A stretch of 64,000 nucleotides of DNA, taken from positions 225-64,224 of the forward strand of contig JAAVFI010000008.1 in the NCBI GenBank assembly GCA_014800815.1, in the 5' to 3' direction. The stretch's first letter is position 1. Every line of letters starts with the position of its first letter. The position numbers and the translations under genes were made by a program. Source of the stretch: Bacteroidales bacterium (GTDB lineage Bacteria > Bacteroidota > Bacteroidia > Bacteroidales > Muribaculaceae). The notes beneath the pieces were generated by a model. That model was not told the origin of the DNA. It saw only the letters and a program-made list of their open reading frames with translations, and did not search any database. Of this stretch, positions 4,369 to 28,652 are shown piece after piece.

Positions 4369-5763
4369 ATGAGAAAGAATTCATCATTAGCAGGGCTTGC
4401 AGCTCTTGTACTTACCTTTACTTTTTCCGGGGAGGCCTTCGGCCGGGACTATCTCGAGCGCAGCCTTCCGGATGATTGGAATCCTGAAATCGAGGCTTCG
4501 GAACTCACCTTCGGCGGAGAATGGTGGAGGTCGCTTAACGACCCTATGCTCGACTCGCTCGTGAGTATAGCCACGGAAACTAACTTCGACATCAATGCGG
4601 CAGCAAGACGTATTGAGGTTGCGCGCCAGACTGTGCGCCAGGCTGCTTCGGCCTGGTATCCGCAGCTCGGTCTCGATGCCGGCTGGCAGCGTGCTCAGTC
4701 GTCAGGTCTTAATGCCGGCCGCACCGGCAATACTTCGGTATTGTCCTACTTCTCGGCTTCGGCCACTATGAACTGGGAAGTCGATGTCTTCGGCAAAACT
4801 GCGGCGCAGGTGCGTAAGGCCAAAGCTTCGCAGGGAGCGACAGTAGCACAGTATAGTGCCGCTTTGCTCTCTATCGAGGCCGAAGTTGCATCTACCTACA
4901 TCTCGCTGCTCGTTAACCGCCTCCAACTCGAGGTAGCACAGAATCACACCAAGATGCAGGAACACGTGCTCGATATCGTCGAGACCCGTTTCCGCACAGG
5001 CCTGGTATCGAAACTCGATGTTGCGCAGGCTCGCACTCTTTACTATTCCACTATCGCTTCGATACCACTTCTTGAATCATCAATCGAGGCAAATTACAAT
5101 GCGCTCGGCGTTCTTCTCGGCACCGGCCGCGACGGTCTGCCTGCCGAAATCTATGCTCCCCGGGAGCTCCCCGAGCACTATGCCCTCATCCCCTTGGGTG
5201 CTCCTCTGAACATTTTGCGTAAGCGTCCCGATATCATTCAGGCCGAGAAAAATATCGACGTTGCCTCGGCTGCTCTCGGCATTGCCCGCAAAGACTATCT
5301 GCCGTCGCTCAACCTCAGCGCATCGGTAGGTACATCGGCTCACAATATCGGTGACCTATTCTCCAAGCAGTCGTTTGCCTATTCGGTGGCTCCGACTCTC
5401 TCGTGGACAATCTTCGACGGACTGAACCGCGAAAGCTCCAACGCCGCAGCCAAGCAAAATCTCGAAATTGCTGTTGACAACTACAATACTACAGTACTTA
5501 CCGCCATTGAAGAAGTGCACAACTCCATGAACCGCTACACCGCCACACTCAAGTATATCGACAGCATGGCAAAGGTAGTAGAGAACAGCGAGGAGAGTGT
5601 AAATCTCTCGCTCGACCAGTACAAGCAGGGGCTTACAGGATTCTACAATGTAGTGGAAGCTCAGCTCAACTATCTCACTTATCAGAATAGCCTCGTGGAA
5701 GCTAAGGGTAACTCCCTCAATGCTTTGGTAGACCTCTATAAAGCTCTTGGAGGCGGTGAATAA
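4369..5763 (+). CDS. RND efflux outer membrane factor (TolC/NodT-like)
   Basis: WW..LNDPMLDSLV..A...NFDI..AA.RI, RPDIIQAE, DLYKALGGG. Confidence 0.93.
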   Translation: MRKNSSLAGLAALVLTFTFSGEAFGRDYLERSLPDDWNPEIEASELTFGGEWWRSLNDPMLDSLVSIATETNFDINAAARRIEVARQTVRQAASAWYPQLGLDAGWQRAQSSGLNAGRTGNTSVLSYFSASATMNWEVDVFGKTAAQVRKAKASQGATVAQYSAALLSIEAEVASTYISLLVNRLQLEVAQNHTKMQEHVLDIVETRFRTGLVSKLDVAQARTLYYSTIASIPLLESSIEANYNALGVLLGTGRDGLPAEIYAPRELPEHYALIPLGAPLNILRKRPDIIQAEKNIDVASAALGIARKDYLPSLNLSASVGTSAHNIGDLFSKQSFAYSVAPTLSWTIFDGLNRESSNAAAKQNLEIAVDNYNTTVLTAIEEVHNSMNRYTATLKYIDSMAKVVENSEESVNLSLDQYKQGLTGFYNVVEAQLNYLTYQNSLVEAKGNSLNALVDLYKALGGGE

Positions 5764-5798
5764 ATCGGAATAAACAGAAAATAAAAATCCCACTAAAT

Positions 5799-11750: not shown

Positions 11751-11853
11751 AAGTCGAAGTGCATCTGCAGGGGATTTAAACGGTCCGACTCCTTGCCGCT
11801 TTTTCCGAGCGACAGGCCGAGGAGACGTAGGGGAGTGCATACGTGGGCTTTGT
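11751..11853 (-). repeat. Direct repeat copy 1: decayed duplicate of the dinB 3' end
   Basis: 96/103 nt identical to 14603-14705; encodes KAHVCTPLRLLGLSLGKSGKESDRLNPLQMHFDF. Confidence 0.95.
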
Positions 11854-11857
11854 AACT

Positions 11858-11888
11858 ATCAGTTGGCAATATCTATGTGCCAACTGAT
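11858..11888. repeat. Perfect 11-bp inverted repeat at the islet left junction
   Basis: atcagttggca-N9-tgccaactgat, 4 nt from the direct repeat. Confidence 0.8.
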
Positions 11889-11950
11889 GTAACTGATAAT
11901 ATTTTCGAGCCTTTAACGGTGAAACACTTGTGTAATTTGTTATAAAGTTG

Positions 11951-11958
11951 TACCTTTG
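11951..11958 (+). promoter_or_regulatory. Bacteroidetes -7 promoter element of TA-like operon 1
   Basis: TACCTTTG, with TTG 20 nt upstream (11928-11930). Confidence 0.65.
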
Positions 11959-11985
11959 TAAGGTATTATATAAAAATTTCTGCTT

Positions 11986-12144
11986 ATGGCACGACCGATT
12001 AAAGAAACCCCCGAACTTCGAGGGAACGATGCGGTGAGATTTGAAACCCTGATCTCTACCCCAAAACCTGTGTCCAAAGAGGAGAAGGAGCGAGCCCGCA
12101 AGGCTTATGAAGTAATGAAATCTATCAGCAATTTTCAGTGGTGA
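11986..12144 (+). CDS. 52-aa putative antitoxin (not in ORF track)
   Basis: MARPIKETPELRGNDAVRFETLISTPKPVSKEEKERARKAYEVMKSISNFQW; its TGA overlaps the GNAT GTG (GTGA 12141-12144); similar to 28391-28576. Confidence 0.8.
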   Translation: MARPIKETPELRGNDAVRFETLISTPKPVSKEEKERARKAYEVMKSISNFQW

Positions 12145-12683
12145 AAATTGATTTCAGCAAACTGCGCCAGTTCCAACTCACAGAGGACTCTGACATAAAG
12201 CCGTTCAAATGTGCTGATGACGATTTGAACGAATTTCTCTTTGAAGACGCAAAGCATTTTCAAAGAGAACTCATGGCTGTGACTTATTTGCTCGAATATA
12301 TGGAGCAGAATAAGACCGTAGCCTATTTCAGTTTGCTTGCTGACAAAATTATATTCAATCCTGATGAAAAGGGCGTTTGGAATAAACTTAATCGTAATAT
12401 TCCAAACTCCAAACGTCGCAGAAGTTATCCCGCAGTAAAAGTTGGTCGCCTTGCTGTGAATGAAAATTATTCCGGTCAAGGTCTTGGTACATTCATACTT
12501 GACAACATCAAGTATGCATTCTCTAATGTAAAGCGTCTTGGTTGCCGCTTTATTACAGTAGATGCGCTGAAAACTGCCGTGCCGTTTTATGAACGTAACG
12601 GCTTTCAATGTATAACAGAGTCAGACAAGGACGAAGAAACACGCCTGATGTTCTTCGACCTTAAAAATTTCATAACAGAATGA
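12141..12683 (+). CDS. GNAT acetyltransferase, AtaT/TacT-like putative toxin
   Basis: F.C.DDDLNEFL, YPAVKVGRLAV...YSGQGLG, GCRFITVDA, AVPFYERNGF; start taken at GTG 12141 (track gives 12138). Confidence 0.85.
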   Translation: MKIDFSKLRQFQLTEDSDIKPFKCADDDLNEFLFEDAKHFQRELMAVTYLLEYMEQNKTVAYFSLLADKIIFNPDEKGVWNKLNRNIPNSKRRRSYPAVKVGRLAVNENYSGQGLGTFILDNIKYAFSNVKRLGCRFITVDALKTAVPFYERNGFQCITESDKDEETRLMFFDLKNFITE

Positions 12684-12953
12684 TGTCTATGAAATATCAA
12701 CGGAAGTTCACATGGCGATATGCACACTAACCGTTTTGGTGGTTCATGGTTCACGATGGACGCATCAGTAGGCAAGTCATTCCTGAATAAATCTCTCACT
12801 CTCAAACTGTCTGCTACTGACATTTCTCTCTTTGTGCTAAATCATTTAAATTCAAACACTCTCTAAGAAACTTCATAATGATATTTTATCTGGAAGTAAA
12901 ATTTTTGGCGTATCTTTGCTTTATAATATCCAACACTGTTTCAGTATAACGGT

Positions 12954-14006
12954 ATGTTCATAAAAGACTTTTCTAAACTTTGGTTGCTCTTTGTTATAGT
13001 CACTTTATTTAATTGCTCTACAATTAATGGAACCAATATTGTAACCTATGTTGTTTCAGATAGTATAGACCTTTCTTCAGAGAAACTTAAAATGGAATTA
13101 GAGAGTTTTTCAAATGGGGATGATAAGGTTAGAATCTCTTTTAAATTGAAAAGTGCCAATGTGCCTTTTACGATTTATGATGCAAGATGGGTGAATTGTG
13201 ATACAACACTTGTCCCATCCGAACCTTTCTCATTGATTGCGCAAACTAATGAGGTGTCCGGTAAAAACACCGAATGGCACATCTCTCTTGATTTCCCATT
13301 CTCTGATACATTTGAAGATGATGATGTTTTAATTCTAAACACTGACAAAGGAATTATAAGATGTCCTACATCGATTACCGGAAAACTAAGAGTAGAGCTG
13401 GATCTTCTTCGCAACGACTATGAGAATGCAAAAATGAGTGTGCAGAATACATGGATACTTTTATTTGTTACATTGGCGTCTGTTATTGTTATCAGTGCAA
13501 TTGTTTTAATTGTTGTCAAGCGAAGGCTTACACGAAAGCAGAGAGAGATTGAAGAACTTTCAATGCTTATTTCGGAGAGAACCAATCGCAACTATGAACT
13601 GGAGGCGCAGGTTAATACTCTATATAGCAGTCGGCTTGACACGCTGAATATGTTATGTAATGAGTATTTTGAAAAAAGTGATTCCGAGAAGGTGAAACTT
13701 TCGCTATATAATGAAGTTGAAAAACAGATATTGGCTTTACGTGATACCAAAAGGATAGCAGAACTTGAAACGATTGTCAATAAATACATGGACAATATTC
13801 TCGCAAAGGTTCGTGAACAGTTGCCCGAACTTACCGGCAAAGATTTGATATTCCTTACTTATCTCTATGCCGGTTTCGCACCTCGGGCAGTTTGTATTTT
13901 TACCGATATAAAGATTAAGAATTTTTACAACCGTCGAAGCCGACTTAAGGACCGCATCCTTGAATCAAGTGCACCGGATAAGGAAACTTTTGTTTCTAAA
14001 ATGTAG
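12954..14006 (+). CDS. Membrane-spanning regulator with C-terminal LuxR-like HTH
   Basis: Signal peptide, extracytoplasmic domain, TM (WILLFV..IVVK), coiled coil, LPELTGKDLIFLTYLYAGF.PRAVCIF...NFYNRRSRLKDRI; TATCTTTG promoter at 12911-12918. Confidence 0.75.
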   Translation: MFIKDFSKLWLLFVIVTLFNCSTINGTNIVTYVVSDSIDLSSEKLKMELESFSNGDDKVRISFKLKSANVPFTIYDARWVNCDTTLVPSEPFSLIAQTNEVSGKNTEWHISLDFPFSDTFEDDDVLILNTDKGIIRCPTSITGKLRVELDLLRNDYENAKMSVQNTWILLFVTLASVIVISAIVLIVVKRRLTRKQREIEELSMLISERTNRNYELEAQVNTLYSSRLDTLNMLCNEYFEKSDSEKVKLSLYNEVEKQILALRDTKRIAELETIVNKYMDNILAKVREQLPELTGKDLIFLTYLYAGFAPRAVCIFTDIKIKNFYNRRSRLKDRILESSAPDKETFVSKM

Positions 14007-14166
14007 TCTTAACTGGATGATTATCAAGGTGAGGAATTGCTAATTTTTCTTCATGTTGATTATCAGGCTATTAGGGACTTAAATGAGGACAGATATTTTG
14101 TGATATTTTTTGGTCTGCCTAAATATGGATGCTAATTTTGCGGTGTCAAATCAAAAATAACGTCAC

Positions 14167-14484
14167 ATGAAAAAAATCTTTTTAACTGCAGTTTTCAGCC
14201 TCGCGGTTTTTGCGGCTTCTGCTGAAATCAAGTTCCAATCTCTCGACAATGTCAAGGGGACTAACGTAGTGCTGGTAGATGAAAACGCTCCGCAAACAGT
14301 CAATATCACCGATGCTATTTTATCAAATAATGGTAGCGAGTATCCCGCGAAAGAAATAAGATGCGACGTGGTAAACGGAGTTGCAACCTACAAACTCAAG
14401 TTCAAACGACACACCCATTTCAAAGACACTAAAGTAACGCTTACTGTCAATGGGAAAAAAATCACCATAGACATTCTGGATTAA
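14167..14484 (+). CDS. Small secreted beta-rich hypothetical protein
   Basis: SPI signal MKKIFLTAVFSLAVFAASA; TAATTTTG promoter upstream. Confidence 0.8.
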   Translation: MKKIFLTAVFSLAVFAASAEIKFQSLDNVKGTNVVLVDENAPQTVNITDAILSNNGSEYPAKEIRCDVVNGVATYKLKFKRHTHFKDTKVTLTVNGKKITIDILD

Positions 14485-14520
14485 GTTGCGGTGGTAAGCC
14501 ACACATTCCGATCATCGCTT

Positions 14521-14547
14521 TAGGTGCTTCGCTTGGCGAAGCATCTA
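14521..14547. terminator. Hairpin between the converging islet gene and dinB
   Basis: taggtgcttcgc-ttg-gcgaagcatcta; no clear U-tract. Confidence 0.45.
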
Positions 14548-14598
14548 AGTTCACGACTAAAAGGCTTCAACCTCACACTCCTTATTTAACGCCGTGGT

Positions 14599-15666
14599 CT
14601 AAAAGTCGAAGTGCATCTGCAGGGGATTTTCGCGGTCCGACTCCTTGCCGCTTTTTCCGAGCGACAGGCCGAGGAGGCGTAGGGGAGTGCGCACGTTGGC
14701 TTTGTCGAGCAGGCTGCGGGCGGCTGTGAGTATTTCTTCAACCGTAGCCACGGGGGAGAATCCCGAGAGGGAGCGGGTGTGGGTGTCGAAGGCCGATGTG
14801 CGCAACTTGAGTGTGAGCACACTGCCGTCGAACTCTTTTGTGCTGATGCGTCGGTGCAGTTCCTCGGCGAGCGACGCCAGTATGCCGTCGAGTTCGGCAG
14901 GGTCGCTGATGTCGGAGTCGAATGTGCGTTCGCATCCTATTGACTTGCGGACGCGGAAAGCTTCGACGGGACGATTGTCGACGCCACGGGCAAAATCGTA
15001 GTACTGTTTGCCGGCTTTGCCGAAGTAGAGCCGAAGTTCGGGTACTGAAAGATTGCGCAGATCGGCGCCTGTGTATATTCCGAGAGAGTGCATCTTGGCA
15101 GCTGTCACGGGGCCTACTCCCCAGAAACTTTCCACGGGCATGTGGGCTATGAATTCGGCTGCGCGCTCGGGAGCTATCACGCATAGTCCGTCGGGTTTGC
15201 GGTAGTCGGATGCTATCTTGGCGAGGAACTTGTTGAACGACACGCCGGCAGATGCTACGAGGCCGAGTTCGTCGCGTATCGCCTTCTTAATGTCGCGGGC
15301 GATGTCGAGTGCAAGAGGGATGTTACGGTGATTTTCCGTTACGTCGAGGAAGGCCTCGTCGAGTGATATAGGCTCGATGATATCGGTATGGCGGTGTAAT
15401 ATTTCGTGAATCTGTGCCGATACCGCCTTGTATACGTCGAACCTGCAGTCGACGAATGTAAGCTGCGGGCACAGCTTGCGTGCTTTGGACGACGACATGG
15501 CGGATCGCACTCCGAAGCGGCGTGCCTCGTAGCTTGCCGCGCATACCACACCGCGTCCGTCGGCCTGACCTACGGCTATAGGCACACCGCGGAGGGCGGG
15601 ATTGTCGCGCTGTTCTACCGAAGCGTAGAAAGCGTCCATGTCGATGTGTATGATTTTGCGAACCAT
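14599..15666 (-). CDS. dinB: DNA polymerase IV
   Basis: RKIIHIDMDAFYASVEQRD, ASYEARRFGV.SAM, SLDEAFLD, NKFLAKIASD..KPDG; C-terminal clamp-like QMHFDF; ATG at 15666. Confidence 0.97.
   Translation of the reverse strand: MVRKIIHIDMDAFYASVEQRDNPALRGVPIAVGQADGRGVVCAASYEARRFGVRSAMSSSKARKLCPQLTFVDCRFDVYKAVSAQIHEILHRHTDIIEPISLDEAFLDVTENHRNIPLALDIARDIKKAIRDELGLVASAGVSFNKFLAKIASDYRKPDGLCVIAPERAAEFIAHMPVESFWGVGPVTAAKMHSLGIYTGADLRNLSVPELRLYFGKAGKQYYDFARGVDNRPVEAFRVRKSIGCERTFDSDISDPAELDGILASLAEELHRRISTKEFDGSVLTLKLRTSAFDTHTRSLSGFSPVATVEEILTAARSLLDKANVRTPLRLLGLSLGKSGKESDRENPLQMHFDF
14603..14705 (-). repeat. Direct repeat copy 2: functional dinB 3' end
   Basis: Pairs with 11751-11853 (7 mismatches). Confidence 0.95.
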
Positions 15667-15817: not shown

Positions 15818-15910
15818 ATTTTTCGTTTGCGATGCAAAGTTAAGGCGAAATTTCTGACTGTGCAAGTATTTCGGCTGATTTTAACATTATTTTAGGCTGA
15901 GCGATTTGTC

Positions 15911-27330: not shown

Positions 27331-27563
27331 ACTGTGGGGTGAATTTCAATGTCCAAAGTTACAAAATTTTTCCCAAATAGAGAAGACGTGGGCGCCAAAG
27401 AGTCTTTCAAAAGCCTTAAATACTGTCTATAAACATTAAATAAACTATAAATATGTAGTTAAATGTTAAACATGAATTTGTTAATGCGCAGATAATTAAG
27501 TATTTACGATTTTACACTAATTTCGAGGCGATTCAGGTACTTGCACAAACAAAAATACCTCCC

Positions 27564-27571
27564 TAACTTTG
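27564..27571 (+). promoter_or_regulatory. Bacteroidetes -7 promoter with no protein gene downstream
   Basis: TAACTTTG, with TTG at 27541-27543. Confidence 0.65.
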
Positions 27572-27575
27572 CAGT

Positions 27576-27738
27576 GCAAAAAATAGCAGATACATAAGAT
27601 CAGATGTTGTGAAACATCCTCGTTGTAAAAGACTCAACTTTACGCAATTATCTAACACAATGTCTATAGGACAACTGTTTAGGCTGAGTAATTCAGCGCA
27701 AGTACCCGTTCCAAGTGTGGCACGGGTACTTTTGTTTT
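27576..27738 (+). ncRNA. Candidate structured small RNA (~160 nt)
   Basis: Promoter; GATGTT-GTGA-AACATC, TGTC-TATAG-GACA and GCTGA-GTAAT-TCAGC hairpins; perfect 10-bp terminator stem (27700-27709/27722-27731) plus TTGTTTT. Confidence 0.6.
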
Positions 27739-27785
27739 ATGATTAAAGTGAAGTATGCTAAAGACTTTTAGACGTTGAAGATTGG

Positions 27786-28394
27786 TTATCGAGATTTTAA
27801 GTCGAAGAACATAAATCGAGTTTTTAGAGGTTCTTGCGGTGATAATTCCAGAAAAGTTCTTTCTTCGTCTTCTGATTTATACAAAGGTTTAAAACCATTT
27901 TTTTTGTAGAAATGTATGGTTTTATCATTGTTATACGCATCAACTACAATGAACCGACACCCGGTTTTATTGTCTGTAGATTTAAACCACTCTTTTACAT
28001 AATCAATAATCTGACTTCCGATTTTCAAACCTTTACCGCGATATAGGGTGGAGACTCCAAGACGTCCTATAAGCACTGCAGGGTAATTTATACCACGTTT
28101 AGTATTTATAACGGAGCGCTGAAGTCTGTTGAGGGCAGATTTTGCAATAAGTTTCAACTTTACACTATCATTGGACAGTGTAATCATTCCTAAAATTTCT
28201 TTAGGGTCAGATTTGTTGACCCAAGCGTAAGTTTTGCCTAACAGTTCTGAGTCGTAATGTAAGGCTACGTTGGTGAAAAAATCATCTAAATCATTATCCT
28301 CACAGCAAAATGGAGTGCAGAATGCCGCTAATTCTGCTGTATAGGGAACTTTGACTGCATCTTTTGAAAGATCAAAATTTAGAGATTTATTCAT
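27786..28394 (-). CDS. GNAT acetyltransferase, AtaT/TacT-like putative toxin
   Basis: FCCEDNDLDDFF, YPAVLIGRLGV...YRGKG..IG, GCRFIVVDA, FYKKNGF, MFFDLK. Confidence 0.85.
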   Translation of the reverse strand: MNKSLNFDLSKDAVKVPYTAELAAFCTPFCCEDNDLDDFFTNVALHYDSELLGKTYAWVNKSDPKEILGMITLSNDSVKLKLIAKSALNRLQRSVINTKRGINYPAVLIGRLGVSTLYRGKGLKIGSQIIDYVKEWFKSTDNKTGCRFIVVDAYNNDKTIHFYKKNGFKPLYKSEDEERTFLELSPQEPLKTRFMFFDLKSR

Positions 28395-28576
28395 CCTTTC
28401 TTTCCAAATAACTGTTGATAGAATTCCCGAGATTTGCGTTCAATTTCTCGGAGATATTCTTCGCGCTCAGGAGATAGGCGAGGAGTTGGATTCTGTGCAT
28501 TTCTTTCTGCCTCTTCAAAAAAGATACGGGCAGATTCACCGGTAAGAATTGGTGAAGAGTTGATTGTCATTGCCAT
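28391..28576 (-). CDS. 61-aa putative antitoxin
   Basis: MAMTINSSPILTGESARIF...; ATGA overlap with the GNAT; TATATTTG promoter at 28597-28604; similar to 11986-12144. Confidence 0.78.
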   Translation of the reverse strand: MAMTINSSPILTGESARIFFEEAERNAQNPTPRLSPEREEYLREIERKSREFYQQLFGKKG

Positions 28577-28652
28577 AATAATATACTTTTAGACTACAAA
28601 TATACTACTATATAACATATTGCGCAAAAAAATTGCACAATATTAATTAGTA

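Follow-up and report, generated by a model that had tools for sequence, protein, structure and literature searches.

A mini-protein/GNAT gene pair as a putative toxin–antitoxin module with a non-canonical partner in gut Bacteroidales

Can a very short open reading frame (ORF), lying upstream of a GNAT acetyltransferase gene and belonging to neither of the recognised partner types of such enzymes, encode an antitoxin? The question is raised by a two-gene cassette on the minus strand of a 64,000-nucleotide stretch of contig JAAVFI010000008.1 (positions 225 to 64,224; assembly GCA_014800815.1) from a Bacteroidales bacterium of the Muribaculaceae. The whole stretch is referred to below as the window. 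The cassette, called pair 2, consists of pep2, which codes for a mini-protein of 61 amino acids (aa), and GNAT2, which codes for a 202-aa acetyltransferase. GNAT toxins are a well-studied class of toxin–antitoxin (TA) systems, with two partner types so far (DUF1778 and DUF4065). We propose, with a probability of roughly 0.6, that the cassette works like a type II TA module with a non-canonical mini-antitoxin and was independently acquired. Calling pep2 an antitoxin is based on indirect evidence throughout: the order and overlap of the two genes, their strict co-occurrence, a GNAT predicted to fold like a toxin, and the way in which the genes decay.

In pair 2, the mini-protein gene comes before the GNAT gene. 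The stop codon TGA of pep2 lies over the start codon ATG of GNAT2 (Table 1), and this ATGA overlap suggests translational coupling. Equivalent overlaps (GTGAATAA, ATGGATAA) were found in homologous cassettes, across which the overlapping or tightly adjacent arrangement is kept. The first-pass annotation of this DNA had described a 61-aa peptide and a GNAT with an ATGA overlap, quoting two strings of the enzyme, and all of these are present, on the minus strand. GNAT2 has the motifs PF.C..DLDDFF, YPAVLIGRLGV, GCRFIVVDA, and FYKKNGF, and the strings NYPAVLIGRLGVS and TGCRFIVVDAYN were found. The same annotation had placed the pair in an AT-rich patch without visible attachment (att) repeats. This agrees with the GC content of the cassette, 35.9% against 52.7% for the whole window, and with the search for direct repeats around the pair, which yielded nothing beyond chance matches of 12–23 nt. 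GC content at third codon positions (GC3) is 0.30 for GNAT2 and 0.29 for pep2, compared with 0.64–0.67 in the genes on either side. The complete cassette, comprising promoter, mini-protein gene, and GNAT gene, measures about 0.85 kb.

GNAT2 matches the Pfam families Acetyltransf_1 and Acetyltransf_7. When it was compared with the PDB by phmmer, the best matches were all GNAT toxins of TA systems, namely AtaT2, AtaT, TacT, and KacT, with E values from 1.3e-7 to 5e-3. An AlphaFold2 model of GNAT2 was made from 28 sequences (pLDDT 81, pTM 0.78) and searched against the PDB with Foldseek. Ranks 1–37 were all occupied by tRNA-acetylating toxins, with target-normalised TM-scores of 0.61–0.80; they include TacT1–3, AtaT, AtaT2, KacT, GmvT, and 7byy (deposited as 'bacterial toxin'). 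Generic GNATs appeared only at lower ranks. By sequence and predicted fold, GNAT2 is closest to the TacT/AtaT/KacT/GmvT toxins, which acetylate aminoacyl-tRNAs.

The similarity extends to individual residues. Y163 of GNAT2 aligns with the catalytic Y144 of AtaT (Y140 of TacT and Y145 of KacT in relatives), is invariant in the GNAT2 family, and is conserved out to a canonical DUF1778-linked GNAT of Klebsiella. The toxin-type N-terminal motif F-x-C-x-x-x-DL-x-x-F and the strand P-A-V-x-I-G-R-L are also retained. The acetyl-CoA loop reads RGKGLKIG and carries a 2-residue insertion relative to both canonical toxins and GNAT1, the enzyme of the other pair in the window (pair 1, formed by GNAT1 and the mini-protein gene pep1). 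This insertion in the G-x-G loop, an N-terminal extension, and a C-terminal insert make up the extra segments of GNAT2 in comparison with canonical toxins. Residues 76–104 form a basic loop of low model confidence (7 K/R vs 1 D/E) before the P-A-V-x-I-G-R-L strand (beta-4). The equivalent region of AtaT presumably faces the acceptor end of the tRNA in the 7CHD complex, which we take as a lead only. Both enzymes of the window match phrog_1758 over their full length (GNAT2, E 6.7e-32; GNAT1, E 2.5e-35).

Is the small upstream ORF a gene at all? Homologues of pep2 fall into 254 clusters at 90% identity, nearly all of 58–64 aa and all annotated as 'hypothetical'. They come from assemblies of Muribaculaceae, Paramuribaculum, and Bacteroidales, and 16 columns of the family alignment are invariant. 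Between cassettes of different genomes, the nonsynonymous divergence of pep2 (pN) is 0.17–0.23, while the synonymous divergence (pS) is saturated at 0.72–0.96. So many clusters, together with a low pN against a saturated pS, imply that the small ORF is more than a chance ORF. Judged by these substitution rates, pep2 encodes a genuine protein on which purifying selection acts. It may be noted that on a Logan contig identical to the window the automatic gene call omits pep2.

The families of pep1 and pep2 share the N-terminal motif M-A-x-x-I-x-x-x-P-x-L-x-G-x-x-A-x-x-F. An exhaustive HMMER search with a joint profile of the two gave 901 cluster representatives (50% identity) at E<=1e-3, almost all of them 45–110 aa long. 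The C-terminal half varies by subfamily, with ...SISNFQW in the pep1 type, ...SREFYxxLFG in the pep2 type, and ...F-x-F-P-P in others. In the AlphaFold2 model of pep2 (pLDDT 86), an extended N-terminus (residues 1–12) is followed by two helices (13–28 and 36–60). The mini-proteins weakly match two 52-aa PHROGs of unknown function, phrog_16712 and phrog_13585. Literature searches, whose coverage was incomplete and which are no proof of absence, returned no paper describing the family. A 108-aa protein (P0396) beginning with MAxPIKxTPxLxGxDAxxF was seen in a phage-like context at locus L210 (1589–1915), where it adjoins a DNA methyltransferase and no GNAT.

How regularly the two genes occur together was examined by scanning metagenomes with the GNAT alignment. 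The 80 loci recovered represent 30 lineages at 95% nucleotide identity. A mini-ORF of the peptide family lies immediately upstream, on the same strand, in all 78 of the 78 loci that have enough upstream DNA. A GNAT of this type also follows each of three distant environmental representatives of the peptide. On viral contigs of IMG/VR, a peptide-family ORF is present at 13 of the 33 loci with a GNAT homologue. These 13 are the closer homologues together with locus L120, and their GNATs are 31–50% identical. Among the remaining viral loci that were inspected, most show a different short ORF (53–86 aa) at this position. On Acinetobacter-phage-like contigs (L104–L118), the ORF ahead of the more distant GNAT homologues (28–35% identity) is of another conserved kind, 53 aa long (MGNIMKAPAMLVTPTFGV...), and may represent another family of mini-partners for toxin-like GNATs.

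Mobile elements carry the pair as well. A plasmid of Parabacteroides distasonis has a 55-aa 'hypothetical protein' and a 'GNAT family N-acetyltransferase' adjoining an integrase, a plasmid of Segatella copri has a mini-ORF/GNAT pair, and the Bacteroides phage BS-TP1 carries the pair next to its integrase. In the latter, the annotated 167-aa gp121 (L207, 1978–2481) appears over-extended, and the real mini-ORF probably starts at an internal Met, MARPIKNTPVLYGKDAERF. Loci L002 and L004 have GNATs with GTG starts that had been called 70 residues too short. Both pairs of the window follow the pattern of the family, in which a protein of 45–70 aa starting with MAxxIxxxPxLxGxxAxxF is encoded just ahead of, and in the same orientation as, a TacT-like GNAT.

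The two genes do not decay alike. In four independent lineages, a damaged GNAT gene stands behind an intact peptide gene: the GNAT is frameshifted in L009–L011 (around 5190–5790) and in L166, truncated at the catalytic Tyr in L165, and has its C-terminus replaced in L161/L162. The frameshift of L009–L011 recurs in three independent samples, so that a sequencing error is unlikely there. The counts are small, and for the cases seen on single contigs sequencing error remains possible. An intact GNAT without its peptide was not found among the 78 metagenome loci with enough upstream DNA. Loss of the GNAT first is the asymmetry that would be expected if the enzyme does harm when its partner is missing.

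Copies closely related to the cassette were found in three unrelated chromosomal neighbourhoods. Their DNA resembles that of the window only between a point about 45 nt before the peptide ATG (~28620) and the end of the GNAT gene. In the window, pair 2 lies between a glycosyltransferase gene and an extracytoplasmic function (ECF) sigma operon. A 455-bp AT-rich spacer (27331–27785) separates the GNAT2 stop codon from the ECF sigma gene, and none of the compared loci has a homologue of this spacer. The adjoining operon (sigma, anti-sigma, and a 166-aa protein) is syntenic in 80 genomes of different Muribaculaceae species. In these 80 genomes, neither a GNAT nor the peptide occurs within 5 kb of the operon, and no DNA resembling the 1.3-kb intergenic region is present. 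The first-pass annotation had proposed presence and absence across strains as a check, and had named vertical conservation in all relatives, as a housekeeping acetyltransferase, as an outcome that would speak against it. The cassette is missing upstream of the operon in all 80 species and is foreign in composition, so that a vertically inherited housekeeping gene is ruled out at this locus. From its distribution, the cassette is horizontally acquired and mobile among the chromosomes, plasmids, and phages of Bacteroidales.

Pair 1 lies 15 kb away from pair 2, and scans of all ORFs of the window with hidden Markov models found exactly these two mini-ORF/GNAT pairs. GNAT1 and GNAT2 are 36% identical over 174 aa (E 2.6e-27). 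BLAST does not align pep1 with pep2, and their family profiles match with an E value of 1.2e-4 and a probability of 55% over the N-terminal 37–41 residues. That pair 2 repeats the two-gene architecture of pair 1 in diverged form is thus borne out, the GNATs being clearly and the peptides distantly homologous. The 103-nt direct repeats that bound the island of pair 1 duplicate the 3' end of dinB, and the island has no integrase. Closer relatives are found elsewhere, at 78–82% identity for pair 2 and at 98–100% for pep1. We considered local duplication of pair 1 as the source of pair 2 and rejected it, since the identity is only 36% and both subfamilies and contexts are different. The different islands and contexts, the closer relatives elsewhere, and the foreign composition support independent acquisition of the two pairs from two subfamilies. 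Repeated acquisition, which the first-pass annotation had deduced from the presence of two divergent pairs, also agrees with the wide spread of the separate subfamilies and with the absence of pair 2 at the syntenic locus.

Does the cassette carry its own promoter? The first-pass annotation had assigned one to it, and a box of the Bacteroidetes -7 type (TAnnTTTG) stands ahead of pep2. With 44 such boxes in the window, where 23 would be expected, the lone match to TATATTTG is weak evidence by itself. Upstream of pep2, two TTGNGCAA boxes occur within 28577–28652. About 30 homologous cassettes, drawn from other contexts, keep the -7 box and the -33-like TTG 20 nt farther upstream in place, the latter within a single box TTG(C/T)(G/A)(C/T)AA. 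In an alignment of 40 upstream regions, a -33-like TTG and a -7 TAnnTTTG are conserved at fixed spacing, which suggests that the promoter travels with the two genes. The assignment of an own promoter holds as far as conservation goes. The palindromic boxes TTGCGCAA and TTGTGCAA could be the -33 element only, or an operator.

We compared the cassette with the known systems that it most resembles. With the GNAT/DUF1778 systems (TacAT, AtaRT, KacAT, ItaRT, GmvAT) it shares the toxin fold, the catalytic Tyr, the acetyl-CoA loop, and the N-terminal motif of the enzyme, as well as a small partner gene upstream that overlaps or abuts the GNAT gene and carriage on mobile DNA. It differs from them in a partner that is not DUF1778, lacks a ribbon–helix–helix (RHH) signature, and has 52–61 aa instead of about 88–95. 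GNAT2 is also longer than the canonical toxins (202 aa vs ~160–175 aa), to which its identity is about 20–30%. Since the DUF1778 antitoxin domain was tested for and is absent, the cassette is not a member of the GNAT/DUF1778 family. The GNAT/DUF4065 (Panacea-type) pairs, such as VcaAT, have been validated experimentally (PMC9177977). They are a precedent for GNAT toxins that exchanged DUF1778 for an unrelated partner and are still functional TA systems, but pep2 has no DUF4065 match and, at 61 aa, is much smaller. The same study describes 'TA-like bicistronic loci outside the true TA clade', with short 'divergent' upstream ORFs that lack DNA-binding domains and for which no family was defined (PMC9177977). 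The cassette fits this class exactly, the likeness being one of description only. Unlike those 'divergent' ORFs, the mini-ORFs reported here make up one coherent superfamily, whose N-terminal motif is invariant and to which both pairs of the window belong. As to phrog_1758, the same two-gene arrangement is seen on phage and viral contigs, and the PHROG entry says only 'acetyltransferase'. What is new here is that the short ORFs upstream of toxin-like GNATs are one widespread, GNAT-linked family in gut Bacteroidales and their mobile elements, whose TA biology is poorly explored.

The following mechanism can be envisaged. One promoter would give a bicistronic mRNA from which the mini-protein is translated first and GNAT2 is coupled to it through the ATGA overlap. 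The mini-protein would bind GNAT2 and block its activity. On depletion of the mini-protein, free GNAT2 would acetylate charged tRNAs at their alpha-amino group, with acetyl-CoA as the donor, and translation would stall. The toxicity of GNAT2, its tRNA target, its binding by pep2, autoregulation, and the role of each part of pep2 are steps that we infer. As a speculation, the PxLxGxxAxxF motif might be a common module that serves in docking, in dimerisation, or in contacts with DNA. Cognate specificity might come from the C-terminal helix, which is variable and follows the GNAT subfamily. This division of roles is drawn from the conservation pattern and from analogy with modular type II antitoxins.

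Several results weigh against a TA module with pep2 as antitoxin. An RHH-like reading of the pep2 model was considered in view of its extended N-terminus and two helices, and no fold match was found in the PDB. Neither Pfam nor NCBIfam gave a consistent match for pep1, pep2, and 32 diverse relatives. When the peptide profile was aligned by hhalign with a DUF1778 antitoxin of Klebsiella, the probability was 0.04%. Charge and isoelectric point of peptide and GNAT are not consistently complementary across families. A conserved operator was sought in the promoter alignment, but the -33 box is palindromic in only some cassettes, and autoregulation is therefore not established. Support from RNA sequencing was also sought, and the only run that carries the sequence is a DNA gut metagenome. 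A few longer proteins have the N-terminal motif alone and do not adjoin a GNAT. That the motif also heads such proteins suggests a separable module, and MAxPIKxTPxLxGxDAxxF may be a small module of general use that combines with other partners. For GNATs preceded by short ORFs of no recognisable kind, other functions have moreover been left open explicitly (PMC9177977). Besides these results, the mini-proteins have no sequence match in the PDB, where the family profile finds no AtaR, TacA, or KacA chain, and PADLOC (PADLOC-DB 2.0) gave no match at E<=1 for any of the four proteins of the two pairs.

As the main alternative, GNAT2 could be a non-toxic accessory acetyltransferase whose substrate is a small molecule, an antibiotic, a protein, or even the mini-protein, with the mini-protein as regulator, adaptor, or substrate. 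The cassette would then be a beneficial mobile 'moron' and not an addiction module. GNATs are functionally very diverse, the peptide has no recognised antitoxin or DNA-binding domain, and GNAT2 has extra segments that canonical toxins lack. Nevertheless, we consider this explanation unlikely, as no other GNATs are as near in sequence or in fold as the tRNA-acetylating toxins and the toxin-type N-terminal motif (F-x-C-G-x-x-x-L-x-x-F) is retained together with the basic loop before beta-4. Strict overlapping pairing, and decay of the GNAT with the peptide kept, follow from a toxin/antidote pair but are unexpected for a beneficial enzyme. Far less credible still is a vertically inherited housekeeping acetyltransferase preceded by a chance ORF or a non-coding leader. 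Automatic annotation does leave the peptide uncalled on the identical Logan contig, but its sequence is conserved while synonymous sites are saturated, the pair is absent at the syntenic locus in 80 Muribaculaceae species, it occurs in unrelated contexts, and its GC3 is about 0.30 vs 0.65.

A further possibility concerns physiology and is compatible with a TA-like module. The pair may serve in conflicts between phage and host, as abortive infection or defence in bacteria and as superinfection exclusion or stabilisation in temperate phages and plasmids. The toxin/neutraliser chemistry would be unchanged, and an infecting phage that shuts off or degrades a labile mini-protein would be the trigger. 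It would agree with the full-length matches of both GNATs to phrog_1758 and the weak matches of the peptides to 52-aa PHROGs, and also with the pairs on IMG/VR contigs, on the integrase-adjoining plasmid, and in BS-TP1 beside the integrase, a position typical of morons. However, neither protein has a PADLOC match and no defence genes are adjacent in the window, and we regard this role as rather doubtful, though less so than an enzyme with another substrate.

If the cassette is taken as a TA-like module, a wider proposal can be made, to which we give somewhat less than an even chance. The 50–60-aa proteins would be a new superfamily of antitoxins (~900 clusters) that act by plugging only, have no recognisable DNA-binding domain, and neutralise TacT-like toxins. 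The N-terminal PxLxGxxAxxF would be a new toxin-docking or DNA-contacting element, the ~0.85-kb cassette would circulate through chromosomes, plasmids, and temperate phages of gut Bacteroidales as an addiction or phage-exclusion module, and co-resident subfamilies would be insulated from each other. Should the mini-protein be the antidote, few protein antitoxins would be smaller, and the window would offer a natural two-pair system for cognate specificity and a compact stabilisation or defence cassette for Bacteroidales genetics. Should it not be the antidote, GNATs nearest to tRNA-acetylating toxins would have been recruited to another function.

Table 1. Positions of the two gene pairs and of other features in the window
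Feature	Position	Strand	Description
GNAT2	27786–28394	(-)	202-aa GNAT acetyltransferase, TacT/AtaT-like putative toxin; ORF and translation
pep2	28391–28576	(-)	61-aa mini-protein, putative cognate antitoxin; N-terminal motif MAMTINSSPILTGESARIF
ATGA overlap	28391–28394	(-)	pep2 stop TGA over GNAT2 start ATG
TATATTTG	28597–28604	(-)	Bacteroidetes-type -7 box (TAnnTTTG), 20 nt before pep2 ATG
TTGCGCAA	28620–28627	(-)	palindromic -33-like TTG element, 20 nt upstream of the -7 box
TTGTGCAA	28633–28640	(-)	second near-identical palindromic box, 13 nt from TTGCGCAA, over the -33 region
pep1	11986–12144	(+)	52-aa mini-protein, distant homologue of pep2
GNAT1	12138–12683	(+)	181-aa GNAT, GTG start over pep1 stop
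Pair 1 island	11751–14705		2.85 kb, AT-rich; bounded by 103-nt direct repeats, 93% identical
Membrane-anchored protein	12954–14006		350 aa, in the pair 1 island
Candidate small RNA	27564–27740	(+)	~160 nt, in the AT-rich spacer 3' of GNAT2
TAACTTTG	27564–27571	(+)	promoter-like box of the candidate small RNA
Hairpin	27700–27731		14-bp stem, 55 nt past GNAT2 stop; T-run on the + strand only
dnaA	43950–45368	(-)	

Two other observations were made in the window. In the spacer next to GNAT2, the candidate small RNA has a fold z-score of -4.0 (none of 200 shuffles being as good), and the 43 nt nearest to its promoter are similar to sequence lying ahead of dinB (15826–15868). A scan of 26.5–29.5 kb with Rfam returned no RNA family, and no homologue of the candidate was found in any compared locus. 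The hairpin is possibly a bidirectional terminator or the terminator of the plus-strand small RNA. Farther away, dnaA is followed by a 0.5-kb AT-rich non-coding stretch at 45.4–45.9 kb, with a GC content of about 0.41. As the window's cumulative GC skew reaches its maximum here, the stretch is probably the chromosomal replication origin.

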